64,000 nucleotides of DNA from a virus, in IMG/VR virus record IMGVR_UViG_3300020213_000023, positions 31,046-95,045 of that record; one strand, written 5' to 3'. The position numbers were made by a program, and so were the translations under genes. The notes beneath the pieces are model-generated. The model did not search any database. It was given only the letters and a program-made list of their open reading frames with translations, and was not told the origin of the DNA. Below are positions 28,132-61,526 of this stretch, in pieces; the first letter of the stretch is position 1, and each line of letters starts with the position of its first letter.

Positions 28132-29115
28132 ATGGTCGACCAGTACCGGGACCCTACCTTGGCTGTTCTCGTTCAACTCGTGGCGGGCAGGCCGAAGCTT
28201 GCCGCCGCCGTGGGGGATGTCGACATCCAACCTGACGAATTGGATGCATTGCCGTCTTCGGCCTTCGCATGGCCTGAAAAACGTGCGTTCCCGTTGCACA
28301 CGCGCGAGCATGCGATGCTGTCGCGGGTTTACCGTGAAAATTCGCCGAGCGTTCCAGGCCATGTCGACGCCGCCCTCAAGGAGGCGTGCGACCTCTACGG
28401 AATCGACGAAGACCTGTTCGCCCGCGTCAAACAGGCGGCCCCGGTAGACGACCCCGAGAACTACCTCATCCCCGACCGCAAGCTGATCCCCGTGCGTAAT
28501 GCGGCTGAGGTCAAGCTTGCCGAAGAGAAGGTTGTCTCGGGGTACACCAAACTCGCGGTGGAAACTCGCGCGCTGGTGTGCACGCGCCTCGTCGAGAAGG
28601 CAGCCTACTTCGGTGTGACGCTCAAGCCGCTTACCCACAAGCTCGCAGGCTTCACAGTAACGTCGACAAAGATCCTGAAGGATTGGCTTGGCGCCAGGAC
28701 CGAAGCTGCCCCGGAGCAGTACAAGGAAGCTTTCCAAAAGCTGGCGGAAGCCGTCGGAACACTGCCCGCCGAGATCCGCGACCGCAACACTCAGATCAAG
28801 CTGGCGGAAGTCATCGACGCGCTGGACAAGAAGGCGGGCCTGGTCCGGCACTACGACCGCAAACTCCCTGACCCGATGCTCTCGGTCTTCAACACCGATA
28901 AGGTCGCAGGCGAGGGCGTGAACCTCGGTAACAAGTTCGTATCGATGACCCGCCTGGCGTCGTATCCCGCGTCGTTCTTTGGCGATGTCATCGGCGACGA
29001 CCTCGTACGAGAAGCTTCCGACGGGCATGGTGGAATGGACCCCTACAAGCTGGCGGCCATTCTCGAGACGCTTCCGCTGGACATGAAGAACGTGCTCGCG
29101 CAGCAAATGCGCTAG
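28132..29115 (+). CDS. Hypothetical head-associated protein (DUF6582-like N-terminus)
   Basis: LDALPSSAFAWPEKRAFPLHTREHA motif and a second degenerate copy; KQAA and KVAG at linkers. Confidence 0.6.
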   Translation: MVDQYRDPTLAVLVQLVAGRPKLAAAVGDVDIQPDELDALPSSAFAWPEKRAFPLHTREHAMLSRVYRENSPSVPGHVDAALKEACDLYGIDEDLFARVKQAAPVDDPENYLIPDRKLIPVRNAAEVKLAEEKVVSGYTKLAVETRALVCTRLVEKAAYFGVTLKPLTHKLAGFTVTSTKILKDWLGARTEAAPEQYKEAFQKLAEAVGTLPAEIRDRNTQIKLAEVIDALDKKAGLVRHYDRKLPDPMLSVFNTDKVAGEGVNLGNKFVSMTRLASYPASFFGDVIGDDLVREASDGHGGMDPYKLAAILETLPLDMKNVLAQQMR

Positions 29116-29838: not shown

Positions 29839-31085
29839 GCCTTAGCTTCGGCCTCGCCCTTCTTCTGGGACACCTGCATGTTGGACACCGCGGTGATGTA
29901 CGCGGGAAGCTGCGCGAGCACGCGGTTGAGGTCCTGCATGTACCTCGTCCCGTCTTGCACCGTCTTCGACTGCGCGAAGATTTCCCGGATGAAGACGATA
30001 TTGTTTTCCTCCGGCAGGTCGCTCATGAAGTTCGATAGTTGTGAAGCGTAGCTCTCGACCTTGCGCTTCGTGTTGACGAACATCTGCATCGCGACGTTGG
30101 AAGCCAGCGCGGTGATCTTGTCCTGCCGTGCGTCCGTCAGGAGCTTCTTGAACCGGTCCTGAACTGTCGATCCGGTGTGATAGCTGCCGAGCACTTCTTC
30201 TGGCGTGATGACGATGGTCGCGTCGACGATGAACTCCGCGAACACCTCGGCGGAGGTAGCTCCGATCGCGCCCGCAAAGGCCGCCCGTGCCTCAGACGAC
30301 GTCAACGGAACCCCCGCATCATCGAATGCAGCGCACAGCTTGGACACGGTGTCCCAGCTCGCAGGGCACGCGAATGCTTTTCCGGCTCGCGCAGCGTCGA
30401 GATCGTACAAGAGCAGCGGCTGTGCCTCGAGGTGCTCGATCACCTTGACGTGGAACTTGTCCTTAGCGAAACGCATGAAGTCTCCGTAAGACGCCGCCAC
30501 ACCTACAATGACCAGACGTCGCCGCATGGCGGGGTCCTTTTCGAACTCGTTCACCGACATGCCACCCCCGGTGGGGTTCATCGTGACGATGATTTGCACC
30601 TCGTCGGGGAGCGTCATGTCTCCGATGACGCGATCATCAAGCAGGGTGAAGGTAGCCCTGGACACATGCTTATCGACCGTACGATTCAGCTCCTCGATGG
30701 CAAGGATCGGGCAGCGCCCCTTGGGAATCTTCCCGTCCGGGTGACGAAGGCGCTCCGCCTCGATGTACTCGAAGAGGGGTTGAAATCGCCGAGGAATTCG
30801 ACGATCGTAGTAGTGTTTGGTATCCTCAGCCTTCGTCGGAACATGAAAGTCCTCGATCGACATCGTCGGCATGTGCAGCGCCACGTAGGGGACGTTGCGG
30901 TCGGCGGCAGCTTGCTTCGGGATGGCGGTCTTGCCGATGCCGGATGCGCCCATGGCGGCCAGGACGAGACGGCTTCCTGCCATCGACTCGATCAATTTGC
31001 GGAAAGTGCTGGTCGACACCATATGGATGTCAAGCTTCTCGGTGAAGGACTCACCCGCGGTCTCGGTCTTTACGGTGGACATCAA
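29835..31085 (-). CDS. MoxR-like AAA+ ATPase
   Basis: Walker A GASGIGKT, Walker B LAIEELNR, TMNP sensor, DPAMRRR, CPASW. Confidence 0.88.
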   Translation of the reverse strand: MMSTVKTETAGESFTEKLDIHMVSTSTFRKLIESMAGSRLVLAAMGASGIGKTAIPKQAAADRNVPYVALHMPTMSIEDFHVPTKAEDTKHYYDRRIPRRFQPLFEYIEAERLRHPDGKIPKGRCPILAIEELNRTVDKHVSRATFTLLDDRVIGDMTLPDEVQIIVTMNPTGGGMSVNEFEKDPAMRRRLVIVGVAASYGDFMRFAKDKFHVKVIEHLEAQPLLLYDLDAARAGKAFACPASWDTVSKLCAAFDDAGVPLTSSEARAAFAGAIGATSAEVFAEFIVDATIVITPEEVLGSYHTGSTVQDRFKKLLTDARQDKITALASNVAMQMFVNTKRKVESYASQLSNFMSDLPEENNIVFIREIFAQSKTVQDGTRYMQDLNRVLAQLPAYITAVSNMQVSQKKGEAEAKA

Positions 31086-43759: not shown

Positions 43760-44232
43760 CCGGCGTCGACTGCGTCCTTCATGTGTTTTTGGATGAGCCT
43801 TAGAATGTGTGTTTCGGTAGTTCCTGGCGTTTGAAGCTGCGCTACGAAGTAATCCGCTGTGATGACGGATTTCTCGACGAGTTGCTTCTTTTCTAGCGCA
43901 ACGAACGTCATGTCGTTTGACATCAGGTCGATACGCATCAGTGCGATGGGTTGGTCCCCTTTCTTTGCTAAGACCTGAACCATGGTGAAGTCGAGCGGCG
44001 AGAACGCCCATGTACCCATGTGTTTCATGGCCCCGTAGATTCCCAGGGGATCAATCGGAGCCTGTGCCAACAACGACACCACGACCTCGTCCGTCAGGAG
44101 TTCAAGCCGGCGTAGCGCCTTCAGGTTTTCGACCAATCTAGGAGGTACCGGCGCCAGGACCTTGAGGGCCACGTGAGCAACCTCAAGGTCCTCGGCGCTG
44201 TCTACAAACTCGCCGAGCGAGAGCGATTTCAC
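43744..44232 (-). CDS. Hypothetical protein
   Basis: GTGA coupling with the parB stop. Confidence 0.55.
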   Translation of the reverse strand: MKSLSLGEFVDSAEDLEVAHVALKVLAPVPPRLVENLKALRRLELLTDEVVVSLLAQAPIDPLGIYGAMKHMGTWAFSPLDFTMVQVLAKKGDQPIALMRIDLMSNDMTFVALEKKQLVEKSVITADYFVAQLQTPGTTETHILRLIQKHMKDAVDAGQRNV

Positions 44233-45188
44233 AGCGTGTCGCGCAGGCCTGCCGTGAACTCGAGCGCAGCGATGTAGTTCTTGGTCTTCGCCTTGGTCTC
44301 GTCACTGACGTTCGCCTTCTTGAGGCGCTCGTTCAGGATGCCGAGCTGCTCGAGGATGGCGGTCTTGGGGCGAAGGTCGATCTCCTTGCCTTCGTAGATC
44401 TCCTTGGCGACCGCGACCTTCTCGTTGTCGTACTCCGGCTCATTCCCCTTCTTCTTCTTCGGCTTGTCACGTTTGATGCCCAACTTCGTCTTGGCCTTGT
44501 CAGCCACAGCCTTGACGTCTTCGACGGACATCTTCTTACCGCCCGCCTGCCTTTCTTGGATTGCGTGCAGGACCTCGGTCTGCTGTGCCTTGGGCAGCGT
44601 GACGATCTCGCGCACCTGCGTCGGCGACACTTCGCCCTTCTCAAGCGCGTCCTTCACCTCGGACGCGGTGTTCTTGAGCAGTGAGAGACGTTGCGAGATG
44701 TACGGCTCAGACTTGCCCAGCTTGTGCGACAGCTCCGCCTGCGTGACCTCGTAGGTCTCGATGTAGTTCTGCATCGCCTGCGCTTCCTCGAGCGGATCGA
44801 GATTCTCACGCTGGAGATTCTCCACCAGGTTCAACACAGCCTGCTGTTGGTTGCTTCCTTTGACCTTCTTAACGTCGACTTGCGCCCAGCTGGCAGGTGA
44901 CGTTTTGCGCGGAAGCTTCTTGCCGCTCTTGTCCACGGGCGCCCAGTCGGGGTCGCGGAGTTTCTCGATCGCCTTGTAGCGACGACCGCCCGCAACCAAG
45001 AAGTACTTCCTCTTGCCTTCCTTATCTCCGCCGCTTTCACGGACGACGAGTCGCGAGATCATCCCATTCTCGTCCATGCTGGCAGCCAGCTCGTCGATGT
45101 TGGTGAAGGTCTTGCGGCTGTTGAATCCTTCGGGGATGTGGATGTCGCTAAACGCGACGCGTGAACTATCCTTGTTTTGATCGGACAT
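44229..45188 (-). CDS. parB: ParB/Spo0J-like protein
   Basis: IDELAASM..G, LVAGGRRYKA, ENLQRENLDPLEEA, HTH TQAELSHKLGKSEPYISQRLSLL. Confidence 0.88.
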   Translation of the reverse strand: MSDQNKDSSRVAFSDIHIPEGFNSRKTFTNIDELAASMDENGMISRLVVRESGGDKEGKRKYFLVAGGRRYKAIEKLRDPDWAPVDKSGKKLPRKTSPASWAQVDVKKVKGSNQQQAVLNLVENLQRENLDPLEEAQAMQNYIETYEVTQAELSHKLGKSEPYISQRLSLLKNTASEVKDALEKGEVSPTQVREIVTLPKAQQTEVLHAIQERQAGGKKMSVEDVKAVADKAKTKLGIKRDKPKKKKGNEPEYDNEKVAVAKEIYEGKEIDLRPKTAILEQLGILNERLKKANVSDETKAKTKNYIAALEFTAGLRDTL

Positions 45189-46461: not shown

Positions 46462-47421
46462 CTACTTTTTTCCGCGGCAGTGGAACCACATCGAGCACCA
46501 TTTCTCGCTGCACCACCAGTTGCCGGGGTCTGTCCTTGGGAAGTGACCTGACGCGATGGACCTCGCGACGTCCTCCATCACTTTCACTGTGTGCTTCACC
46601 GTATGTGAAGAAATCACACCGTTGAGAACTTCATACCGAGGTCTCGCGACTTTTGCACGACCTTTCACGACCTGATCGACCTGGACGTCGGGTGTATTCT
46701 CGACCCCGGCGTACAATGCGAATTGCAAGTCGTTGTCGAGGTCCCCTTCGGACCATTTGTCCGTAACGACCTTGAGGTCGTGGACCCGCTTGGGCTTACG
46801 GAGTACTGCCGGAAGAACCGGTTGCTTGACGCCCGCGGCCTTCTGTTTGGCGAAGTTGTCAACCAGCTCCTCGCGGATCGACTGGTACTCTTTTTCGTTG
46901 AGAGCTTGCACCTGGATGCTGTCGATGCGTCCAAGCACCGGCAGCCGAATCTTCCCATCCTCCGTCTCGATCACCGTGTGGAACGGCTTTTCCACGTATA
47001 CCGGCATCATCTTGGGTGCAGCTTCGTTGTAGAAGACCTTGGTGCAGGTGATGCCAACGTCCTTGAAGGATTCCGGGGGCTGGTCTTCCCAGTCTTCGAT
47101 GAGCGGCTTCTGCTTCTCGAAGGCGGTCGAAAACACGTCGGTCGCGTCGTCAAGGGACGGCAACTGCCCCTTGAGGAACCGATCCGTCATCATCATTTCG
47201 ACAGCGGCGTGCACTTGGATTCCTTGAAACATCCGAGCAGATGGTTTGCTCGGCTTGTTTTCAATATAACGAAGGTACCACTGTCGTCCGCATTTGAGGA
47301 AGGTGGTTGCTTGAGAAACCGACAAATATCCTCGCGGAAGAACATCGACCAGTTCGATATCTTCGGGGATGGGGATTTGAGGATCCAGACAGTCTTCGAC
47401 TTCTTCCATTCCGTTCGACAT
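46462..47421 (-). CDS. Second PD-(D/E)XK nuclease
   Basis: LSVSQ..C, GIQVH, GRID, DLK, QFALY, WCSEKWC..C. Confidence 0.8.
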   Translation of the reverse strand: MSNGMEEVEDCLDPQIPIPEDIELVDVLPRGYLSVSQATTFLKCGRQWYLRYIENKPSKPSARMFQGIQVHAAVEMMMTDRFLKGQLPSLDDATDVFSTAFEKQKPLIEDWEDQPPESFKDVGITCTKVFYNEAAPKMMPVYVEKPFHTVIETEDGKIRLPVLGRIDSIQVQALNEKEYQSIREELVDNFAKQKAAGVKQPVLPAVLRKPKRVHDLKVVTDKWSEGDLDNDLQFALYAGVENTPDVQVDQVVKGRAKVARPRYEVLNGVISSHTVKHTVKVMEDVARSIASGHFPRTDPGNWWCSEKWCSMWFHCRGKK

Positions 47422-47423
47422 AT

Positions 47424-47780
47424 CTAATAATCCTTCGGAAAGTCGAGCGATTCATTGGGGCCGAGCGCCCGCACCTTCCCTGTAGCATCGTTCTTCACGA
47501 GCCGATTGGAGGCGGCGAGCACGCTCGACATATCAGGTTCATCCACGGTCACGGCGGGGGTTGTTTCCGCCGTAACCGTCGGTTTGGGTGCGGTGGTTGT
47601 TGTTGTTGTTGGGTGCGCCGCGACGAGCGCATCGTCTTCTGTTTCGACGGAAAGCTTGACTTCGAGGGCTCCTTTGTATTCGAGAGATGTTCCGTTTTTG
47701 AGCTTGAGGCCCTGCGCCTTGAGGTCTTTCTCGACGAGGCGAAGGATGTCCTTTTTTTCAAAAGTAACCGAAATCTTCAT
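47424..47780 (-). CDS. Hypothetical protein
   Basis: TAATG coupling with the helicase gene. Confidence 0.6.
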   Translation of the reverse strand: MKISVTFEKKDILRLVEKDLKAQGLKLKNGTSLEYKGALEVKLSVETEDDALVAAHPTTTTTTAPKPTVTAETTPAVTVDEPDMSSVLAASNRLVKNDATGKVRALGPNESLDFPKDY

Positions 47781-49720
47781 TACCGCTCCCGGATCTGGAT
47801 GAGCTGAGCCTTCGCGACAGGACGTGCCACGGAGCGTGGATACACGCAGGCAGGGTCAAACAAGGAAACACCCTCCGCGATACACCTCAAACTATGCACA
47901 CACACGACACAACTCAAGCGCTGGGTGAGGAGGCGATCGACGTCAACCTTGTTATCGAGCAAACGCATGATAGCAGGCTCTACGGTGTTACGTCCCAGCA
48001 AACGGTAAACAGTTACGTTTTTCGTTTGCCCAATCCGGTAATTTCGGTCGAGGCTTTGGAGGTACGCCCCCAGGGAATAGGTCAACGAGAAGTACACCAT
48101 GTACTGCGCCGCGTTGAGCGTGATACCCACGCCGGTCGAGACCTGCGCCAGATAAACACGTACGGAGGGATCTTCGTTGAATCGGTCCGCGAGGTCCTGG
48201 ATACGTGAACCGGTCTTGCCGTCCACGCGCACATAGGACGTGCCCTGGCTGACAAGCTGAGCTTCGACGAGATTCAGCTCCCACTGGTAGTAACACCAGA
48301 CGATGACCTTGTTGGGCGGGTCGATAAGCAGGGTGTCGAGCAGCTCGACCAACGCGTCCAGCTTCGGATTCTCATCGAACAACGTAACCGTGTCTGGGAG
48401 AGGTTCCGGCGCGACCTTGCAACGGTCAGTATACGGGCTCACGCCGTTGGCAACGCAGTCCAACAGATGTCGACAGCCGCCCATCTCGACGTCGTTGCAG
48501 AGGGTCTTGGGGTTATTGTTCTTGATCAAGAACCCTGAGCTGATCTGCAACAGCTTGGTCAGCATCACCGCGCGGTGTGGGAGTTCAGCTGCGGGCGGCA
48601 GTTGGTCATGTGCCGTACCTCCAAGTTGTGCAATGAGCAGTTCGATATCCAGCGCCATCTCAGACACGAGCTGGTTATAGATGACCGCTTGATGGCGAGA
48701 CAGTTCGTATTCGATGTCTACGAACGTTTGCTCAGGGAGGTCCAGGCACTCTGACTTCTTACGACGGAGCGAGACGAATAGCGTACGGGCGTTCAATATA
48801 TCTAGGTTCTTATAACCCAAAACTACGTGGGAATTCGGACCGGCCATCTCCACGAACCTACGCTTGTACGCGACCATGCTTTCCGGCATGAAGTGGTCAC
48901 CCAAGAACCGGAACTGTCCGTATAGATCGAGGGGTGACCCTAGTGTTGGCGTTCCGGTCATGATGACCTTCCGGGTCGCCTTCTGTCCCAGCTCGTGCGC
49001 TGCCTTGGTACGAGCGGATTCCCATTTGGCGATCAGGTGGCTTTCATCACCGATGACCGTTCGGTAGGGCACGTTATCGACGATGGCGTCCACGAAATTA
49101 CGTGCCGTGTCATATGTCAAAAGAAGGATGTCTACCTCCCCGGCAGCCGCACGGTCTACCGCGGCGGTCTTCTCCTTCTTGGTCCCGAGAAGGGCGGTCC
49201 AACGCAGCTGCTTACCTGAGTGTTTGTCGATCTCCTTGCCCCAGTTCTTCACGGTCACCAACGGACCTAGAATGACTGCAGGTTGACGCTCTCCAAGGAA
49301 ATGCTGGAGGCGTAGAAGATCGATGGCGATCTTCGACTTGCCTAGTCCCGGGTCCAGGAAAAGCGCTGACCTCAGGAAATAGAACGCATGACAGAGCGAC
49401 TCGACCTGGTGCGCGAACGGGTTCGTGATGAACGTAAAGCCGCCTGGAAGGATCCTGTCCTTGTACTTCCGTTCGATCTCATCGAGGCTCGTGATGTAGT
49501 CCTGTGCTGTAGGTGAAAATTCGACCGCCATACGCTGTGCCAAGACCTTCAGGTCGTCGACCACTTTCAACGCGGCCGGATAGTACGCGGGGTACATCCA
49601 AACGTGGCGATCCGCGTCCCACGTAGCGCCGAATGGGCGGTCGAGGTCCTTGAGGTGTCCGGCCGCGAGAAAAACAGGAACTCCGTTGCTGGAAGTCCCC
49701 ATGCGAATAATGACTTTCAC
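47780..49720 (-). CDS. SNF2-family helicase/ATPase
   Basis: PFAHQ, DPGLGKS, DESH, TGTP, GVGITL, QSLDRNYRIGQ. Confidence 0.92.
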   Translation of the reverse strand: MKVIIRMGTSSNGVPVFLAAGHLKDLDRPFGATWDADRHVWMYPAYYPAALKVVDDLKVLAQRMAVEFSPTAQDYITSLDEIERKYKDRILPGGFTFITNPFAHQVESLCHAFYFLRSALFLDPGLGKSKIAIDLLRLQHFLGERQPAVILGPLVTVKNWGKEIDKHSGKQLRWTALLGTKKEKTAAVDRAAAGEVDILLLTYDTARNFVDAIVDNVPYRTVIGDESHLIAKWESARTKAAHELGQKATRKVIMTGTPTLGSPLDLYGQFRFLGDHFMPESMVAYKRRFVEMAGPNSHVVLGYKNLDILNARTLFVSLRRKKSECLDLPEQTFVDIEYELSRHQAVIYNQLVSEMALDIELLIAQLGGTAHDQLPPAAELPHRAVMLTKLLQISSGFLIKNNNPKTLCNDVEMGGCRHLLDCVANGVSPYTDRCKVAPEPLPDTVTLFDENPKLDALVELLDTLLIDPPNKVIVWCYYQWELNLVEAQLVSQGTSYVRVDGKTGSRIQDLADRFNEDPSVRVYLAQVSTGVGITLNAAQYMVYFSLTYSLGAYLQSLDRNYRIGQTKNVTVYRLLGRNTVEPAIMRLLDNKVDVDRLLTQRLSCVVCVHSLRCIAEGVSLFDPACVYPRSVARPVAKAQLIQIRER

Positions 49721-49837: not shown

Positions 49838-51610
49838 ATGTCCCAAAACGATCCCACCCTCGGCGACTTGTACGCACCGTCGAGTTCCCACGGCTCGCCG
49901 TTGTTCGACTTCCTCACGGCGTTCGCGCCTCGGAAGCTCAAGGACCTCTTCAAGCTGTGCGAGTACCTGTACTTCAACAGCTCGCAAATCTACGCGGCGC
50001 TGCAGAAGTTCTGTACGTATCCTGTCACTGACATCACCTACGACACGACCAACGAAGCACTGAAAACAAAATACAAGAACCTCCACGACAAGACGATCAA
50101 AACCAAGAGACGCCTGATTCAGGCGGCCACGGACAAGTTCGTCTACGGAAACGCGTTCTTCTCGATCTACATGCCGTTCGTGCGTTTCCTGCAGTGCAAC
50201 CACTGCAAGCAACTGACGAACATCGCGGCGGTGGACTACAAATTCAAGATCAAGAAACTTGAATTTACGTACAGGTGCGCCGCTTGCGACAAACAGGCCA
50301 CCGGGGACGTACAGGACCGCAAGGTCACCCGTCCTGACAAGGTGGCCATCATTCGGTGGGACCCGAAGCTGATGGACATCGACTACAACCCCATCACACA
50401 ACACAGCGAGTACTACTACACGATCCCGAAGGAATTGAAGGACCGCGTCGTCAAGGGAAACCACCACGTCATCAACACGATGCCGATGGAATTCCTCAAA
50501 GCGATCAAGGAGGACAAGATCTTCAAGTTCTCTGAAGGTCAGATCTTCCATATGAAGATGGATGCGCCTGCAGGCATCGAAGCCCAGTGGGGCTTCCCGC
50601 CGCTGGCATCGACGATCAAATTGTTCTTCTACGCAGCCGTGCTGCGTAAGGCGAACGAAGCCATCGCGCTCGACTACATCGTCCCTCTCCGTATCGTCTC
50701 GCCCAAGGTCGCGTCCAGCAACGCAGACCCGTTGCTCACGATCTCGCTCGATAAGTGGGCGAATGAGATGAAGCACAGCGTCAAGCGTTGGCGGCGCGAC
50801 CCTCTCCACATCATGTGGTCGCCGATTCCTGCAGAGGTCACACACCTAGGAGGGCAGGCGCGTGCACTGATGACCTTGGGTGAAGTGCAAGCGGCTGAGG
50901 ACAACATCATCGCGGCGCTGGGTTTGCCGAAGGAGTTCATCTACGGCGGCTTCTCCGCGATGGGCTCAGGCATCCAGTTGCGTGTTCTTGAGAACCAGCT
51001 GATGCACCAAACCAATGACCTCAACGATTTGCTGCAGTGGATCACTGACAAGTTCGCGAAGCTGCTCGGCTGGCCCTCGGTCAACGTGGAATTGGCGCCG
51101 TTCAAGTTCATCGACGACGTGCAGCAGAAGACCCTGCTGTTGCAGCTCCACATGTCCAATCCCCAAGACCCCATGCTGTCGAAGGGGACGTTGGGCGAAG
51201 CGTTCGATGTCGATCCTGCTGAAGAGCGGAAACGCAAACATCAAGAAGCGTTGGACGACATGAGGGCACAGCAAGAACTGCAACAAGAAATGCAGAAACT
51301 GCAAAATACGCTCGCGCAGCAAATACAGGCCCAACAAGCAATGGGTCAACAGGGGTTGCAGTACGACCAACAACAAATCATCGCGCAAGCGGACACCATG
51401 GTAGAGCAGATGATGGGCATGGACCCTGGAACACGGCGCTCACAAATGCATGCACTCGAGGTCGAGGACTTCGTCATGTTCTCCGTGGTCTCGCGCCGCA
51501 TGGAAAACATGCAGACGGCGCAAAACCACGAAGCAATCACGGCGGCGCGGCAGGGGGGAGACCCAAGCGGAGGTGGTAGCGGCGGCGGTCCTCCTGGGAT
51601 GATGGGTTGA
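49838..51610 (+). CDS. Portal protein
   Basis: IFHMK..WGFPPL and IIAALGLPKEFIYGG portal-like motifs; CxxC..CxxC insertion; Q/M/G-rich tail. Confidence 0.75.
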   Translation: MSQNDPTLGDLYAPSSSHGSPLFDFLTAFAPRKLKDLFKLCEYLYFNSSQIYAALQKFCTYPVTDITYDTTNEALKTKYKNLHDKTIKTKRRLIQAATDKFVYGNAFFSIYMPFVRFLQCNHCKQLTNIAAVDYKFKIKKLEFTYRCAACDKQATGDVQDRKVTRPDKVAIIRWDPKLMDIDYNPITQHSEYYYTIPKELKDRVVKGNHHVINTMPMEFLKAIKEDKIFKFSEGQIFHMKMDAPAGIEAQWGFPPLASTIKLFFYAAVLRKANEAIALDYIVPLRIVSPKVASSNADPLLTISLDKWANEMKHSVKRWRRDPLHIMWSPIPAEVTHLGGQARALMTLGEVQAAEDNIIAALGLPKEFIYGGFSAMGSGIQLRVLENQLMHQTNDLNDLLQWITDKFAKLLGWPSVNVELAPFKFIDDVQQKTLLLQLHMSNPQDPMLSKGTLGEAFDVDPAEERKRKHQEALDDMRAQQELQQEMQKLQNTLAQQIQAQQAMGQQGLQYDQQQIIAQADTMVEQMMGMDPGTRRSQMHALEVEDFVMFSVVSRRMENMQTAQNHEAITAARQGGDPSGGGSGGGPPGMMG

Positions 51611-51620
51611 AAGGATTTCC

Positions 51621-52016
51621 ATGGGAAAAAACGACGCACCTCCGTCCTTCGCGGACCTCATCGAGAGCGCGCAGAAGGCGCCAGAGCGCAACGTCATGCG
51701 CGGGGCCGAACTGTCGAGCCCGTTCGGAACGCCTCTGCCTCCCGAACACCGGGTTGTCGATGACGACCCTAGGTCAATCGCCGGAGTTCCCGAATTCGAT
51801 TACCGAGCACACGTCAAGTACCTGACACTCCCTACGGACGCAGGGGACTACGAACAGATCCTCAACGATGCGTTGTCAGGTAAGTGCATCATCCGATCGG
51901 AGCAAACGACCTTTACTAAGGAAGGCGATTGCATCGTCGTGGTCATTTATTTGACCAAGCTGGAACAGCCGCGTCGTCCGAATCGACGTCGTGAAGAGGA
52001 CGACTACAGGCGCTAG
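51621..52016 (+). CDS. Hypothetical protein
   Basis: AAGGA SD; lies between portal and RNAP. Confidence 0.65.
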   Translation: MGKNDAPPSFADLIESAQKAPERNVMRGAELSSPFGTPLPPEHRVVDDDPRSIAGVPEFDYRAHVKYLTLPTDAGDYEQILNDALSGKCIIRSEQTTFTKEGDCIVVVIYLTKLEQPRRPNRRREEDDYRR

Positions 52017-52051: not shown

Positions 52052-55000
52052 ATGGCAAACACGCCCCTCACGCCTGTAATGGTCGACTCGTTTACGCGAC
52101 GGGTGGAGATTCGTCGCAAGGCGATCGAAGGGCTGATGCAATCCTTCCCGCTCAAGGCCCGGTCGTACACAGTCGAGTTGTTGAATCCACGAGTCGAGGC
52201 ACAGGAGTTCTCGTCCCGAGAACAGAAGGCCGCGATTCTCGAGGGCCGGTCGTTGAACGAGCGCGTCCGCGGCGACCTGATCGTACGTGACGCGCAAGGC
52301 AACATTACGAGCGACGCCAAGGGGTTCACCCTTCTCCACTTGCCGTACTTCACGCCGCGTCACACGTTCATCGTCGACGGCACTGAATACAGTGTTTCCA
52401 ATCAGATCCGCACGAAGCCTGGCGTATACACCCGACGGCGCGGCAACGAGGACCTCGAAGCCTCGTTCAACCTGTCGAAAGGCGGCAACTTCCGTGTCCT
52501 CATGGAACCAGAGAAGGGGCACCTCTTCGTCCAGCCAACGCACTCGACGACACGGATCCCGTTGTACCCCGTCCTACGTGCGCTCGGCGTGCCGCACCAG
52601 GACATCGCAGGGAACTGGGGCAATGAAGTAGCTACGCTGAATCGCGACGCATTCAAGAACCCCGAAAAGCACGTCGACAAGTTCTACGCGAACTTCATCC
52701 ATCCCGCCCAACAGACGCACACGTCGCTCGATGAGAAGGTCCGTGCGCTTCACGGATATCTCGATACGACCGCGATGGACCCGCACGTCAACAAGGTCAC
52801 GCTGGGCCATGGTTACGAAAAGGCGTCACCTCAAGCAATCCTGGCCGCCTCGAAGAAGCTTCTCGACGTCCACCGTGCTGCGGACGACACCGACGATCGA
52901 GACTCTCTAGCGTTTAAGACGTTTCACTCTGTCGACGACTTCATCAAGGAAAGGCTCGCGCTCGATGCGCGGTCGCAACGGATGAAGATGGGCATCAAAC
53001 TGGAAGCCCACAAGGGAGACATCCGAAAGGCGCTACCGTCTGCGCCATTCACACGAACCATCAATTCGTTCCTGACGGGATCGTCGCTGTCCGCAGTGCC
53101 GACGCAGATCAACCCAATGGAACTTATCGATCACGCGGTTCGAGTCACCTCGCTCGGCGAAGGCGCCATCTCGTCCGAACGCGCGATTCCGCTGGAGGCG
53201 CGCAATCTGCACGCGACTCACTTTGGGATCATGGATCCGGTAAGAACCCCGGAGAGCTTCAAAGCGGGCATCGACATTCGCGCAGCTCTGTCTACCCGCC
53301 GGGACACGCAAGGCAACCTCTTCTCGACTTTGCGCAACCTCAAGACAGGGCGCACCGAGCACGTCAAGGCCGAGGACATTATGCACTCGGTCGTGGCGTT
53401 CCCTCACGAGGACGTGCGACCAGGCAAGATGGTGGACGCGCTGACTCGAGGTCACGTGCAGCGTGTTCCCGCTTCGCAGGTGACGCACCAAGTCGTGCAC
53501 GTGTCTGACCTCTACGGACCGACGACGAACCTCCTGCCGTTCCTCAACGGCATGCAGGGCAACCGCTCGTTGATGGCATCCAAGCACCAGAGCCAGGCGC
53601 TGTCCCTGATTCATCGGGAGGCGCCGCTCGTGCAGGTTCAGTCGTGGAAGCCGGGCTCCTCCGTCGAACAGGAGATGAACAAGCTCATCGTCCCGACGTC
53701 ACCGGTGGCAGGGATCGTGTCGCACATCGACGACGACTACATCCACATCACGCCGGACAACCACAAAGCGGCGTCGAGCCCCACTGCCGTCGTCGTGAAG
53801 GGGAACCCACGGTTCATCGAGGGGAACGCAGAAGCCACGCGCTTCTACGATGAGATCAAGAAACATCTTGAATCTGTCGGCTACTCCGTAACGTTCGACG
53901 CGGGAGAGCCCTACACACAACCCGTCAACGCCGACCTTTGGGTTGGACATAGCCGTGGGGCAGACCGTCTTCGTTTCGCGCCCAACACAACTCGAACCGT
54001 CGTACTGGGGAGCCCTCACCCGGATGCAATCAATCACCCGGACGATTCAGTTAACGCCCATTTGACGAATACGCCTCCGTCTATCGCTCACTTCACGTTG
54101 ACGCCAGAAATGAAAAACGCGTTGTCAACGATGCCGAGCAAAGGCGCGTCCGCTCCTTGGGAAGACCCCGGCGACGTCTATTCCGACTTCGTCAAGGTCG
54201 GCGACAACGGCAACATCAAGCTCCACTACGACCAAAACTTCCCGCTAGCGGCCAAGACGTACCTGCACAACGACATCAAGGTGAAAGCGGGTGACCGTGT
54301 TCGCGTGGGTCAGGTTCTCGCAACGTCCAACTTCTCGAAGGACGACACTCTAGCGCTCGGCACCAACCTGAGCGTTGCGTACATGCCGTACCGCGGCCTC
54401 AACACGAACGACGGCATCGTCGTGTCGCAGGGAGCCGCAAACCGTCTCGTCTCCGAGCACATGTACAAGCATGTCATGATCTTGACCGGAGGCGTGGAAG
54501 CGAAGCGCGAGAAGCACCGCGCGTACTTCGGTAACAAGTACACCGCAAAACAGTACGATAACCTCGACGAGGACGGTGTCGTCCGTCCCGGGGCGATCGT
54601 ACAGTCGCACGACCCGCTCATTGTGGCCGTTCGTCCGAATCAAGCCACAGGCAACGCAGTGCTATTGGGCCGCTTGTCCAAGTCGTTGGTCAAGCCGTTC
54701 TCCGAAGAAGTCGAGCTGTGGGACCACGATCGACCAGGCACGGTCATCGACGTGGCCAAGACGGGCGACCGCGTCACAGTCACCGTGAAGACAGAGGAGC
54801 ACCTCAACATCGGCGACAAGCTCTCCGGACGCTACGGCAACAAGGGCGTCATCGCGAAGATTGTCCCTGACCACCAGATGATTCAGGACGAGAAGGGAAA
54901 ACCCATCGATCTGCTCTTTACCTCTGCCGGCATCATCTCGCGTATCAACCCGGCACAGGTCATCGAGGCGTCTCTCGGCAAGGTCGCAGCGCACACAGGT

Positions 55001-56842
55001 AAACCCATCGCGGTCGAGAACTTCGCACCGCACGACAACGTGCAGTACGCGAAGGACATGTTGAAGAAGCACGGACTGTCCGACAAGGAGACCGTCTTCG
55101 ATCCGGTCACCAATCGGTCAATCCCCAAGGTGTTCGTCGGCAAGAGCTACATCCTCAAATTGTTCAAGACCACGGACTCGAACTGGTCAAGTCACGGAGC
55201 GGACCGGTACGACTTCAACCAGCAGCCATCGCGCGGCGGTGACGATGGCGCCAAGGCCATCGGCAAGATGGAATTTGACGGTCTCGTCGCACACAACGCG
55301 CGCAACGTGTTGAAGGAAGCTGCGTCTCTCAAGAGCCAGAAGAACGACGAATTCTGGCGCGCGATTCAGCTTGGCCTTCCGACGCCGACACCGCAGACCC
55401 CGTTCGCCTACAACAAGTTCCTCACGATGCTCGAGGGCGCAGGTGTCAAAGTCTCGAAGAAGGGGTCGCGCCTTTCGCTCGGGCCCCTCACGGACAACGA
55501 CATCGCGAAGATGTCGTCGGGAGCGCTCAAAGAGCCGCACAAGATGATTCGCGCTAAGGACCTGCACCCTGAAACAGGCGGCATGTTTGATCCCGCGACC
55601 ACAGGAGGGATGAGCGGAACGAAGTGGTCGCACGTCGAGCTGCACGAACCGCTCGTCAATCCCGTGTTCGAGGAGCCTGTGCGGCGCCTCCTGGGGCTAA
55701 CCCAGAAAGAGTTCACGGACCTGCACAGCAGGCACGGCGGCGCATGGTTTCGACAGGAGCTGGGACGTATCGACGTCGACTTCCGTTTGAAAGAGTTGCG
55801 TGACCGAAGCCGAACGCTCAAAGGCACTGCCCTTGATGACGTTGTCAAACAGATCAAATACCTCAATGCGTTGCAGGCTCAGAAGCTGTCGCCAGACTTG
55901 GCTTACGTGCTCACCAAGATTCCGGTGACGCCCCCGATCATCAGACCCATCCTCCCCCTCAAGGACGGCCGCCTGCAGGTCGGCGACGCCAACCTCCTCT
56001 ACCGCGACGCCTTCCTCGCCAACGACAAACTTCACGAGGTAAAGGGTGTGTTGCCCGCGAATGAACTGCATGCGCCGCGCAAGCATCTCTACGACGCAAT
56101 CAGTGCCGTATTCGGTGTGGGTGATCCAGTGAGCCCTACCACGGAGAAACGCGAGGCCAAGGGCTACCTCGCGATGATCACGGGTACACGCCCGGGAAGC
56201 GGATTCTTCCAGGGCAAGTTGATGAAGCGACAACAAGACATCTCAGGACGCGCGACCATCGCACCTGACCCGACGTTGTCGATGGACGAGATTGGCGTCC
56301 CGGAAGACATGCTATGGGGCATGTTCGGAAAGTTTGTTATCGGGCGTTTGGTTAAGCGCGGCTACACGGCTCTGGACGCACAGAAGATGGTGGAGGAGAA
56401 AGCGCCGCTCGCCCGACAGGAACTGCTTATCGAGGCGAAGGAACGTCCGGTCATGGTGAACCGTGCACCATCGCTCCATCGCTTCAACATCATCGGAGCC
56501 TTCCCCCGCATCACGACAGGCAAGACGTTGATGCTGAATCCCTTCGCTGAAAAGGGAACGAACGCAGACTACGATGGCGATGCAATGCAGATCCACGCGC
56601 CTGTGACCCCCGGAGCGGTCGAAGACGTCAAGCGGATGACGTTGTCGCACCTGCTATTCAATGACCGGCGCCCCGGCCAGTTGAACGTGGCACCAGACAT
56701 GGAAGCCATCATCGGGCTCCACCGCGCCACAGGGGCCAAGTCCGACAAGGTCACAAAGCACTTCGCTTCGAAGGAGACCGCGTTGGCCGCGTACCACCGC
56801 GGGGAAATTTCCCTGGCGGACACGATCGAGATTGCCAAGTAA
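52052..56842 (+). CDS. rpoB: Phage multisubunit RNA polymerase, beta fused to the N-terminal part of beta'
   Basis: beta motifs FIVDG, DPVRTPE, NRSLMASKHQSQA, GDKLSGRYGNKG, SRIN, IGKME; beta' motifs IPVTPPIIRP, GRATIAP, NRAPSLH, NADYDGD (56561-56581). Confidence 0.95.
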   Translation: MANTPLTPVMVDSFTRRVEIRRKAIEGLMQSFPLKARSYTVELLNPRVEAQEFSSREQKAAILEGRSLNERVRGDLIVRDAQGNITSDAKGFTLLHLPYFTPRHTFIVDGTEYSVSNQIRTKPGVYTRRRGNEDLEASFNLSKGGNFRVLMEPEKGHLFVQPTHSTTRIPLYPVLRALGVPHQDIAGNWGNEVATLNRDAFKNPEKHVDKFYANFIHPAQQTHTSLDEKVRALHGYLDTTAMDPHVNKVTLGHGYEKASPQAILAASKKLLDVHRAADDTDDRDSLAFKTFHSVDDFIKERLALDARSQRMKMGIKLEAHKGDIRKALPSAPFTRTINSFLTGSSLSAVPTQINPMELIDHAVRVTSLGEGAISSERAIPLEARNLHATHFGIMDPVRTPESFKAGIDIRAALSTRRDTQGNLFSTLRNLKTGRTEHVKAEDIMHSVVAFPHEDVRPGKMVDALTRGHVQRVPASQVTHQVVHVSDLYGPTTNLLPFLNGMQGNRSLMASKHQSQALSLIHREAPLVQVQSWKPGSSVEQEMNKLIVPTSPVAGIVSHIDDDYIHITPDNHKAASSPTAVVVKGNPRFIEGNAEATRFYDEIKKHLESVGYSVTFDAGEPYTQPVNADLWVGHSRGADRLRFAPNTTRTVVLGSPHPDAINHPDDSVNAHLTNTPPSIAHFTLTPEMKNALSTMPSKGASAPWEDPGDVYSDFVKVGDNGNIKLHYDQNFPLAAKTYLHNDIKVKAGDRVRVGQVLATSNFSKDDTLALGTNLSVAYMPYRGLNTNDGIVVSQGAANRLVSEHMYKHVMILTGGVEAKREKHRAYFGNKYTAKQYDNLDEDGVVRPGAIVQSHDPLIVAVRPNQATGNAVLLGRLSKSLVKPFSEEVELWDHDRPGTVIDVAKTGDRVTVTVKTEEHLNIGDKLSGRYGNKGVIAKIVPDHQMIQDEKGKPIDLLFTSAGIISRINPAQVIEASLGKVAAHTGKPIAVENFAPHDNVQYAKDMLKKHGLSDKETVFDPVTNRSIPKVFVGKSYILKLFKTTDSNWSSHGADRYDFNQQPSRGGDDGAKAIGKMEFDGLVAHNARNVLKEAASLKSQKNDEFWRAIQLGLPTPTPQTPFAYNKFLTMLEGAGVKVSKKGSRLSLGPLTDNDIAKMSSGALKEPHKMIRAKDLHPETGGMFDPATTGGMSGTKWSHVELHEPLVNPVFEEPVRRLLGLTQKEFTDLHSRHGGAWFRQELGRIDVDFRLKELRDRSRTLKGTALDDVVKQIKYLNALQAQKLSPDLAYVLTKIPVTPPIIRPILPLKDGRLQVGDANLLYRDAFLANDKLHEVKGVLPANELHAPRKHLYDAISAVFGVGDPVSPTTEKREAKGYLAMITGTRPGSGFFQGKLMKRQQDISGRATIAPDPTLSMDEIGVPEDMLWGMFGKFVIGRLVKRGYTALDAQKMVEEKAPLARQELLIEAKERPVMVNRAPSLHRFNIIGAFPRITTGKTLMLNPFAEKGTNADYDGDAMQIHAPVTPGAVEDVKRMTLSHLLFNDRRPGQLNVAPDMEAIIGLHRATGAKSDKVTKHFASKETALAAYHRGEISLADTIEIAK

Positions 56843-56871: not shown

Positions 56872-57207
56872 GTGAGCACCATCGTGAAAGAGGCCTACGA
56901 CGAGGGCGTCGCAGAGGCGCTCACCAGGTTCGGCCTCAAGGAAGCGGCAAACGAGATCCGCCTCAAAATCCCCAAGCGGGAGTTTCACGGTTTCGACGCA
57001 GCGTTCAAGCCGCGCGTGAAGGCGCTCAAGGAAGCCAACAGCGAGCCACTCGAACCGCAGGCATCGCCAGAGCAGCCTGCGGAGATGCTCGCGGACATAT
57101 TGCAGACGTTAAGCCTGCCAGCACCTCCAGGGGAGCAAAAACATACGGCGGTTGACCGCCCTGTTTTCTGGGGCAGCCCCACGGACGCAAGTAAAGGAGC
57201 CGTTTAA
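56872..57207 (+). CDS. Putative head-internal protein with shared N-terminal leader
   Basis: KEAYDEGVAEALTRFGLKEAA. Confidence 0.7.
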   Translation: MSTIVKEAYDEGVAEALTRFGLKEAANEIRLKIPKREFHGFDAAFKPRVKALKEANSEPLEPQASPEQPAEMLADILQTLSLPAPPGEQKHTAVDRPVFWGSPTDASKGAV

Positions 57208-60254: not shown

Positions 60255-61526
60255 ATGTTCAAGAACGCATACGTTCGAGGCGTCACAAACGCGCTGATCC
60301 AAAGCGGTCATGTTGCGTTTCCCGACGAGGATTCCGCGGCCAAGATCGCGGACTTCATTGGCGATCGTGCGGATTTCGATCCGCACAACATGACACGCGA
60401 AGTCGCGTTGAAGATCGCCAACGCCGTCATCGAAGCATCGGAACACCTCGTCGCGAAGGGCTACAAGGCCGCCGCGGTCACGATGAAGGTTGCTTCCGTC
60501 GAGGACCTCGGCAAGCTCGCCCATGCCCACGTCATCCACTTGATGGAGAAGGCCGCTGAAGGCTCGACCATCGAGGGCGGTGACAAGGGCAACGCGGAGT
60601 CGAACTCCGCTGAGGGCAAGATGGACGCGTCGCAGCGTCCGCCTGGCTACGCCGAGAACTCGCTCGGCAGCTCTGCCGTCGATACCCGCCCGGGTGCCGT
60701 AGGCAAGGAGCAGCCGCAACCCAACGCGCCGTCGGAGTCGCCGTCAGGGTCGAACTCGATCACGGATGCCTCGAAGGCGGCCTCGCTCGGCGCGCTGATC
60801 AAGAAGGTCGCTGAAGGCACGACGATCCTGGGCGGCGACAAGGGCAACACGGAGCCGACCACAGCAGAGGGCAAGATGGACGCAGCGATGCGTCCGCCCG
60901 GCTACGCCGTCCTGCCCGGCCAGGGCGACCTCGGCGAGCTGATGAACCAGGTCAGCAGCAACGCGGTTGTTGGCCGCGAGACCCCGCATCCGAACGCGCC
61001 CTCCGAGTCGCCGTCGGGTTCGAACTCGCTCACAGAGCACTCGTCCAAGGCGGCAGCCGAGGACCCGTTCGTCGCTGTCTTCAAGAATACCGCGACCGAG
61101 ATCGTTCGGTACCTCCCGGCCTCTCTGGATGACTACGCGAAGATCGCCCACGTTCGTGCCTGTATGGGCCTGTCGATGAACGAGAAGGCGCACTATCTCG
61201 TCGGCCTCCAAAAGGAGGCAGCGGACAAGACCGCGGCGAAGGCGCGGGCTGCCGCACCGTCCTACCAAGGCTACGACGGCCGTAACGCGAACCAGCGCAA
61301 GGTCGCGGAGATGCCGGCATTCATCCAAGAGAAGATCGACGCCCGGAAGGAAGAGGGCGGCGAGAAGAAGGACGATGACAAGGCGTCCGGCGGCTTCCCG
61401 TTCGCCAAGAAGGATGACGAGAAGAAGGACGAGAAGAGCGAGGACAAGAAGGACGAGGACAAGAAGGAAGCGTCCCTCGCTGCTCACTTCCGTCGTATCT
61501 CGGCCTCGATCAACTCGGCTGCGTAA
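60255..61526 (+). CDS. Putative head scaffold / core protein with internal duplication
   Basis: GAGGAG SD; leader KNAYVRGVTNAL; two ~80-aa repeats; more than 10 KxA sites; K/D/E-rich tail. Confidence 0.7.
   Translation: MFKNAYVRGVTNALIQSGHVAFPDEDSAAKIADFIGDRADFDPHNMTREVALKIANAVIEASEHLVAKGYKAAAVTMKVASVEDLGKLAHAHVIHLMEKAAEGSTIEGGDKGNAESNSAEGKMDASQRPPGYAENSLGSSAVDTRPGAVGKEQPQPNAPSESPSGSNSITDASKAASLGALIKKVAEGTTILGGDKGNTEPTTAEGKMDAAMRPPGYAVLPGQGDLGELMNQVSSNAVVGRETPHPNAPSESPSGSNSLTEHSSKAAAEDPFVAVFKNTATEIVRYLPASLDDYAKIAHVRACMGLSMNEKAHYLVGLQKEAADKTAAKARAAAPSYQGYDGRNANQRKVAEMPAFIQEKIDARKEEGGEKKDDDKASGGFPFAKKDDEKKDEKSEDKKDEDKKEASLAAHFRRISASINSAA
60549..61055 (+). repeat. Diverged direct repeat (60549-60782 and 60804-61055)
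   Basis: K(A/V)AEG(S/T)TIxGGDKGN..AEGKMDA..RPPGYA..VG.E.P.PNAPSESPSGSNS.T..SKAA occurs twice. Confidence 0.9.

Follow-up and report, generated by a model that had tools for sequence, protein, structure and literature searches.

A mobile polyvalent-type domain in a swappable loop of a phage multisubunit RNA polymerase

We analyzed a 64,000-nucleotide stretch of viral DNA (hereafter the window; positions 31,046 to 95,045 of the IMG/VR record IMGVR_UViG_3300020213_000023), which forms the final 64 kb of a 95-kb viral contig, about half complete, from an uncultured phage with a genome of ~185 kb. One of its genes encodes a bacterial-type RNA polymerase in which the beta subunit is fused to the N-terminal part of beta' (beta-beta'N; protein P0001), and an additional domain is inserted into a loop of the beta portion. 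This additional domain belongs to a widespread mobile family of ~117 residues (here called the GHSRG domain), which phages use as a module of polyvalent proteins. With a probability of roughly 0.6, we consider that a mobile polyvalent-type domain is carried here in a swappable loop by a probably packaged polymerase, and that it is likely to be a serine hydrolase. In the proposed scheme, the domain would sit in a tolerant hairpin loop of the beta sandwich-barrel hybrid region, and the polymerase would carry it into the capsid and then, together with the DNA, into the host, where it would act as a serine hydrolase through Ser634, Asp665 and His680. The loop would serve as a cassette slot that accepts the GHSRG domain, an InPase domain or a short linker. 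The insert is flanked by K-x-A-(A/S) marks, which may be head-protease sites that release the domain; otherwise it would work while tethered to the polymerase.

The insertion loop and its alternative occupants

P0001 was aligned with gp206 of Salmonella phage Arash, the corresponding protein of Vibrio phage D69 and 32 relatives from IMG/VR (34 in all). In P0001, some 130-150 additional residues separate the strand ..DDDYIHIT from the segment ..IKLHYDQNFP (its IKLHY was aligned with LVKVPY in the relatives), whereas the same loop comprises only 0-40 residues in most of the 34 relatives. The insertion site lies within the N-terminal sandwich-barrel hybrid region, N-terminal to the beta catalytic barrel, and corresponds to a tight hairpin near residues 655-661 of Mycobacterium tuberculosis RpoB. 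The first-pass annotation of this DNA had proposed an insertion of ~145 residues in this region, and the segment is a real and self-contained domain. The insert had been delimited at residues 572-717 (K572 at position 53765 and the end of G717 at 54202, with GHSRG, residues 632-636, at 53945-53959). These coordinates agree with the translation, in which the quoted strings VVVKG, WVGHSRGA, VVLGSP, HPDD, AHF, HKAAS, SKGAS and VKVGD were all found, but the exact domain limits have to be redrawn: the core occupies residues 579-691, residues 692-711 form a low-confidence linker, and residues 712-726 look like a hairpin of the polymerase itself (Table 1).

The segment that follows the insert, DFVKVGDNGNIKLHY, and the pre-insert strand (DDDYIHITPDN) both align to one M. 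tuberculosis RpoB hairpin, and therefore the first strand looks duplicated around the insert. In addition, the insert has a lower GC content at third codon positions (GC3) than its flanks, as had been noticed before: GC3 is 0.664 for the insert, the lowest within the polymerase gene, and 0.632 for its core, vs. a mean of 0.764 (standard deviation 0.037, minimum 0.692) for the other 146-codon segments of the gene.

Table 1. Features of the insert, of the polymerase gene and of its neighbors in the window, and other polymerase-linked carriers of the domain
Feature	Position in window	Strand	Evidence
Portal gene	49838..51610	+	29% identity to Arash gp204 portal protein, E 5e-95; same gene order
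RNA polymerase beta-beta'N fusion gene, 1596 aa (P0001)	52052..56842	+	Open reading frame (ORF) translation, Pfam, identity to Arash gp206
Pre-insert strand SPVAGIVSHIDDDYIHIT, residues 550-567	53699..53752	+	Aligns with all relatives and with M. tuberculosis RpoB around 640-655
N-side linker PDNHKAASSPT, residues 568-578, including K572-A-A-S	53753..53785	+	Alignment
Inserted mobile domain core, residues 579-691	53786..54124	+	phmmer, PHROG 30942, AlphaFold2 predicted local distance difference test (pLDDT) about 92-98
G632-H-S634-R-G636, candidate nucleophile elbow	53945..53959	+	Conservation and model
H662-P-D-D665, HPxD motif, candidate acid	54035..54046	+	Conservation
H680, candidate catalytic His	54089..54091	+	Conservation; 15 residues past D665
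C-side linker STMPSKGASAPWEDPGDVYS, residues 692-711, including K697-G-A-S	54125..54184	+	pLDDT 54-65
DFVKVGDNGNIKLHY, residues 712-726, hairpin back into polymerase fold	54185..54229	+	Aligns with M. tuberculosis RpoB hairpin 647-665
beta' C-terminal part, separate gene, 598 aa	57607..59403	+	Pfam Rpb1_5, E 3.2e-18
P0028: domain in the same loop, plus intein-like insertion
P0090: domain after beta'N, then P-loop kinase-like domain
P0076: domain N-terminal to beta'N
P0101: domain with NUDIX, before beta'N
P0108: domain with InPase and HAD-type phosphatase
P0143: domain inserted near residue 226-253 of beta

As the first-pass annotation had thought possible, this loop is a cassette with variable content. 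Ten relatives have a ~150-residue polyvalent-protein InPase (PF18823; E-values from 1.8e-32 to 7e-07) at the same site, with K-x-A-containing linkers on both sides like those of the window. Other relatives have short 'empty' linkers with K-x-A, and P0028 carries the same GHSRG domain as the window. On a polymerase tree built without the insert columns, the state of the loop changes at least four times inside one 15-member clade. The sister of the window polymerase (L004, 64-66% identity) has a 33-residue linker only, and the sister group of P0028 includes one InPase-bearing member and two that have no insert. Neither Arash nor the complete InPase-bearing relatives were found to contain the GHSRG domain. 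InPase was not found in the contig of the window or in Arash, and G001, the single InPase-bearing genome that was searched, has it in the polymerase loop only. Therefore, both cargoes are accessory and interchangeable. For the same reason, namely its absence from Arash and the complete InPase-bearing relatives, the GHSRG domain is dispensable, which tells against the scheme proposed above.

Much larger insertions of another kind, 350-540 residues long, were observed in the polymerases of relatives at positions equivalent to the conserved residues 401, 924 (between GDK and LSGRYGNKG), 1382 and 1509 (NADYDGD) of the window polymerase. Their carriers are L032 (5797-6858, 8242-9375 and 9757-11250), L018, L020, L021, L023, L024, L026, L027, L030 and L033. 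Four such segments were scanned against Pfam. In L032, LAGLIDADG_3 matched the segments at 924 (9.5e-09), 1382 (1.3e-04) and 1509 (0.004, below the Pfam cut-off), and the last of these also gave a sub-threshold match to Intein_splicing (26.1 bits vs. a cut-off of 35.8); the segment scanned at 401 had no Pfam match. Because of these LAGLIDADG and Intein_splicing matches and of their catalytic or otherwise conserved positions, these insertions are probable inteins, with up to three in one gene. An intein reading of the insert in the window was rejected: it has no intein Pfam match, its site is a variable loop, and the probable inteins of the relatives lie elsewhere.

The domain family and its candidate catalytic residues

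A phmmer search with the insert against 1.84 billion representatives returned 339 clusters (at 50% identity) with E ≤ 1e-3, 252 of which had E ≤ 1e-10, and therefore the insert is not a chance string. The matches always span about 117 residues (query positions about 4-123). The insert also matches PHROG 30942, which is annotated as 'unknown function' (E 2.4e-15), and all near-length homologues of the domain are labelled hypothetical. Pfam contains no family for it: no relevant match was obtained for the insert or for 32 members of the domain family scanned down to E 10, and none of the Pfam LPD models (polyvalent-associated domains) matches.

Many of the matches are stand-alone proteins of 120-160 residues that contain the domain only, and others have it at varied positions inside proteins of up to about 2200 residues. 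The large carriers combine the domain with SNF2 plus Helicase_C, KTSC, 2H phosphoesterases (2H-SAK, LigT and Acb1) and the LigD_N 3'-phosphoesterase, as well as with GNAT, InPase, NUDIX, HicA and DUF4236; judged by domain content, this repertoire is that of polyvalent proteins (PMC5512222). Pieces of phage multisubunit polymerases account for 11-12 of the 150 best matches, among which the domain is joined to polymerase modules in at least six architectures (Table 1), and most of the carriers inspected are not polymerases. In P0011, an SNF2 protein, the homology seemed to continue into the polymerase, but this was dismissed as alignment drift. In the tree of the domain, 13 of 120 branches are supported, which is too few to assign the copies of the window and P0028 to one insertion event or to separate ones.

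Conservation across 151 members of the family is concentrated in G584-N-P, Y599, G618, T622, P624, W630 and R639, besides GHSRG, HPxD and H680. Within the candidate elbow, G632 is kept in 96% of the members, the following H in 96%, S634 in 98%, R in 92% and G636 in 99%, and the residue preceding Ser634 is H, F or Y across the family, as in lipase motifs. Of the members that align at HPxD, about 88-93% keep its H, P and D, and the H680 column has His in 119 of 123 aligned members (78% of 152 rows). The Ser, Asp and His that had been picked out from the single sequence are thus among the most conserved residues of the family, and D665 and H680 follow Ser634 in the order Ser-Asp-His. The spacing between Asp and His is similar in cutinase. 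In an AlphaFold2 model based on a 32-sequence alignment (mean pLDDT 89), strand 58-62 runs directly into helix 63-71, and Ser634 lies exactly at the turn. Conservation and model together show the small-x-Ser-x-small nucleophile elbow of alpha/beta hydrolases in this domain. We lean, by a little over even odds, to the view that the domain is a minimal serine hydrolase on a flavodoxin-like sandwich, in which Ser634 would be the nucleophile and Asp665 and His680 its partners. Two conserved arginines (R635 and R639) beside Ser634 hint at the kind of substrate, as their presence suggests that the putative hydrolase would act on an anionic one.

Several results weigh against a hydrolase. A profile search of PDB sequences with the domain gave only two chance matches, none of them relevant, and no alpha/beta-hydrolase Pfam family was matched at E ≤ 10 by the 32 members. 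An hhalign comparison with E. coli-type YqiA (UPF0227) esterases returned a probability of 0.3%, which is a weak negative in view of the shallow template (81-99% identity), and Foldseek searches of PDB and BFVD gave no match at E ≤ 1e-3. In the VIA scores, hydrolases do no better than periplasmic binding proteins and CheY-like receivers, with which they are tied, and the tool rates scores of this level as common. ESM Atlas returned unnamed clusters only, at 0.90-0.92. Of the alpha/beta-hydrolase fold assigned in the first-pass annotation, the nucleophile elbow is retained in the AlphaFold2 model. Membership of the superfamily is not supported by the profile tests, all of which fail, and the fold scores are tied with those of other flavodoxin-like folds.

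On the same results, the domain might instead be a flavodoxin-like binding or regulatory module for a nucleotide or small ligand, or might have some other chemistry, with the lipase likeness of G-H-S-R-G being fortuitous. Such a module would agree with the equally good fold matches to periplasmic binding proteins, CheY receivers, NAD kinases and flavodoxins, with the missing profile link to any hydrolase family, with the conserved arginines, which suggest phosphate binding, and with a sheet of only 4-5 strands, below any canonical alpha/beta hydrolase. However, we consider it rather unlikely, as the strong conservation of Ser634 at a strand-to-helix turn in Sm-x-S-x-Sm, the lipase-like residue before it and the canonical order of the conserved Asp and His all speak for catalysis, and the small alpha/beta hydrolases 2qjw and cutinase head the VIA list.

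Packaging, K-x-A marks and the fate of the insert

In the virion proteome of Arash, no protein has a higher spectral count than Gp206, and Gp216 (beta') is abundant too (PMC10585845). This is suggestive and not proof, because the proteome lists 116 proteins (PMC10585845), and packaging is known only for the Arash orthologue, which is 35% identical to P0001 across 91% of length; both points count against carriage by a virion polymerase. Since the polymerase gene lies in a head-gene block and its Arash orthologue is the most abundant virion protein, the polymerase would most likely be what brings the domain into the capsid and the host. By analogy with Arash, the polymerase of this phage is probably packed into the head.

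The first-pass annotation had also proposed that the insert is bracketed by K-x-A cleavage sites resembling those of neighboring head proteins. P0001 contains six K-x-A motifs (9.2 expected), and three of them, at 572, 688 and 697, fall within the insert or at its edge; K688 is part of a conserved helix of the domain. The probability of finding K-x-A in both insert flanks by chance is about 0.011 (shuffling), and the N-side linker column has K-x-A in 14 of 30 distinct relatives. KAA (572) and KGA (697) do lie in the linkers, but V-KVG-D, named as a further site, is probably no boundary site and lies inside a strand, since DFVKVGDNGNIKLHY aligns with the M. tuberculosis RpoB hairpin.

The same mark surrounds the domain in other proteins. 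K-x-A occurs 5-13 residues ahead of the domain in other carriers and 1-12 residues past it in most of them. In the 50 carriers with enough flanking sequence, we counted 33 K-x-A motifs vs. 7.8 expected in the 23 upstream positions (P about 2e-11; the domain's own K-T-A was left out) and 45 vs. 10.2 expected in the 30 downstream positions (P about 9e-16). K-x-A thus flanks the domain 4-5 times above expectation. It is on both sides in 25 carriers, its distance from the domain varies, and its pattern is K-[T,Q,S,E]-A-[A,S,E]. Where Pfam domains were mapped (nine carriers), the motifs are mostly interdomain (4 of 4 in P0004), and stand-alone members often have a short N-terminal leader ending in ..LEK-x-A-E immediately before the domain. 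The K-x-A-(A/S) at the insert flanks is also the mark found at leader ends of neighboring head-module proteins in the window. Because of this flank excess, the interdomain placing, the leader ends and two motif-rich window proteins described below, K-x-A is a real boundary mark.

With regard to those neighbors, the otherwise unrelated ORFs at 56872, 57207, 59403, 59951 and 60255 begin with a common ~22-residue leader, xxAYxxGxxxAxxxFG(I/L)KEA, which has a K-x-A end. This leader, which is not on the polymerase chains, could be a capsid-targeting propeptide. Two proteins are rich in the motif, with 14 vs. 2.9 expected at 28132-29115 and 15 vs. 6.1 at 60255-61526, a pattern that would fit scaffold-like proteins cut into pieces. 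The beta' C-terminal (beta'C) protein has none (2.9 expected).

Whether such marks are cut is a separate question. That K-x-A-(A/S) motifs are head-protease sites freeing the domain is a reasonable but tentative reading, against which we would set somewhat the longer odds, and a number of observations argue against it. K-x-A is also conserved at the buried polymerase core positions 59 and 977, so K-x-A alone is no sufficient cut signal. Depletion of the motif was looked for in the polymerases of the relatives, and none was seen, the counts being near expectation. Neither Peptidase_S78 nor ClpP nor MPTase (MPTase-PolyVal) was detected in the phage's own contig, in the Arash genome or in L008, L013, L029 and L032, relatives that are complete or nearly so (three to four of them searched). 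Peptidase_S77 had no match in the same genomes either, which is uninformative as the control genomes gave none. With none of these families detected, the protease that matures the heads of these phages would be very divergent or not yet recognised. In the literature, no report of K-x-A processing was found. A wider generalization, which we think improbable for now, is that such polymerases are programmable carriers whose internal slot takes up interchangeable effector enzymes between K-x-A-(A/S) marks, that K-x-A-(A/S) is a head-protease code punctuating polyvalent proteins generally, and that GHSRG proteins are new injected serine hydrolases.

Alternatively, the domain may never be excised and may directly serve transcription as a tethered part of the polymerase. 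Its targets could be, for example, nucleotides, RNA ends or by-products that resemble pyrophosphate; InPase would do likewise, and K-x-A-(A/S) would be only a favored flexible linker. The other occupant of the loop is a pyrophosphatase, for which product relief for polymerases has been proposed (PMC5512222). Moreover, other polymerase pieces pair the domain with NUDIX, a HAD-type PNKP phosphatase or a P-loop kinase, and the number of polymerase-linked architectures among the best matches and the K-x-A motifs at buried conserved positions point the same way; cuts at both flanks would, in addition, sever the beta chain within a hairpin. We nevertheless judge permanent tethering to be unlikely on balance, because most carriers are unrelated to transcription (SNF2, GNAT, 2H, HicA and stand-alone proteins), close relatives have an otherwise intact polymerase without the domain, and the K-x-A excess on both sides and its recurrence at leader ends are hard to derive from linker composition alone.

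Large lineage-specific insertions in surface loops are tolerated by bacterial beta subunits, and the site is a hairpin loop of varying length among the relatives, but an ordinary, vertically inherited RpoB insertion with a structural role only is very improbable and already largely refuted by the hundreds of homologues outside polymerases, the patchy distribution on the polymerase tree, the distinct composition, the enzyme-like invariant residues and the fact that an unrelated enzyme domain can take its place in the loop.

Genomic setting and comparison with known systems

The polymerase gene of the window has Pfam matches to Rpb2_6 (E 3.7e-46), Rpb1_2 (E 7.3e-21), Rpb2_3 and Rpb1_1, and both catalytic motifs, GDKLSGRYGNKG and NADYDGD, are intact. 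Together with the separate beta'C gene, the fused beta-beta'N with intact beta and beta' barrels reproduces the Arash-type polymerase layout. A small ORF (51621-52016) is the sole gene between the portal and polymerase genes. The only cultured relatives of P0001 are those of Salmonella phage Arash (OQ632216.1) and Vibrio phages D69, D181 and D148. The portal-polymerase block is directly preceded by genes of the opposite orientation, which encode a ParB-like protein (44229-45188, minus strand; PHROG 3264), an exonuclease (46462-47421, minus strand; PHROG 69) and a DNA helicase (47780-49720, minus strand; PHROG 62). In two more distant relatives (L031:2974-9192 and L035), beta, beta'N and beta'C form one ~2070-residue chain; since Rpb1_5 sits in the C-terminal 600 residues of these single chains, the subunit boundary varies within the group.

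If the proposed scheme is correct, polyvalent proteins would extend from end-to-end fusions of the single-subunit N4 type to cargo inside a loop of a multisubunit polymerase, and this loop would offer a natural site where evolution has already tested the insertion of domains. A widespread, unannotated enzyme-like domain would gain a catalytic hypothesis for its 339 clusters, based on Ser634, Asp665 and His680. K-x-A-(A/S) would, moreover, predict cuts in polyvalent and head proteins, and injected effectors could then be catalogued from sequence alone.

Among known systems, the closest are polyvalent proteins, which are encoded by phages and conjugative elements, include fusions of N4-like virion RNA polymerases with effectors and have been proposed to be co-injected with DNA (Iyer et al. 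2017, PMC5512222). Like the carriers of the window domain, they contain SNF2, KTSC, 2H, GNAT, InPase and NUDIX domains, and solo forms exist too; their MPTase peptidase domain, however, was not found here. The N4-type virion polymerase is likewise a vehicle for unrelated enzymes, but it is a single-subunit enzyme and its fusions run end to end, in contrast to the bacterial-type multisubunit beta-beta' described here, in which the cargo lies within an internal loop of a folded domain. Multisubunit polymerases and a K-x-A boundary mark are not mentioned in that work (PMC5512222). The InPase (PF18823) of polyvalent proteins and portal fusions occupies the same loop with similar K-x-A linkers, but it is an OB-fold pyrophosphatase, unrelated to the GHSRG domain in fold and chemistry.

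Arash Gp206 and the proteins of Vibrio phages D69, D181 and D148 are orthologous beta-beta'N fusions whose genes follow the portal gene in the same order; unlike in the window polymerase, the loop of these proteins forms a tight turn that lacks both cargo and K-x-A. Compared with cutinase (4oyl) and XCC1541 (2qjw), the GHSRG domain is about 60 residues shorter, has fewer strands and shows no sequence or profile relation. The phiKZ/SPN3US-like jumbo phages also package a multisubunit RNA polymerase in their heads and eject it into the host, and many of their internal head proteins are trimmed by a head protease that has a short motif (PMC10052503, PMC7598289). These polymerases belong to a very divergent split-subunit lineage, the protease motif ends in Glu rather than being K-x-A, and these papers describe no cargo in an internal beta loop (PMC10052503, PMC7598289).

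The first-pass annotation had known of no such polymerase insertion. Our literature search found no report of cargo in multisubunit phage polymerases, but the concept is less unprecedented than first thought because polyvalent proteins, including N4 virion polymerase fusions, have been published (PMC5512222). The features that we did not find described are the beta-beta' carrier, the swapping of loop cargo between unrelated enzymes, the K-x-A-(A/S) punctuation and the GHSRG family. The known frame into which they fall is that of polyvalent proteins (PMC5512222) combined with the virion multisubunit polymerases of jumbo phages (PMC7598289, PMC10052503).

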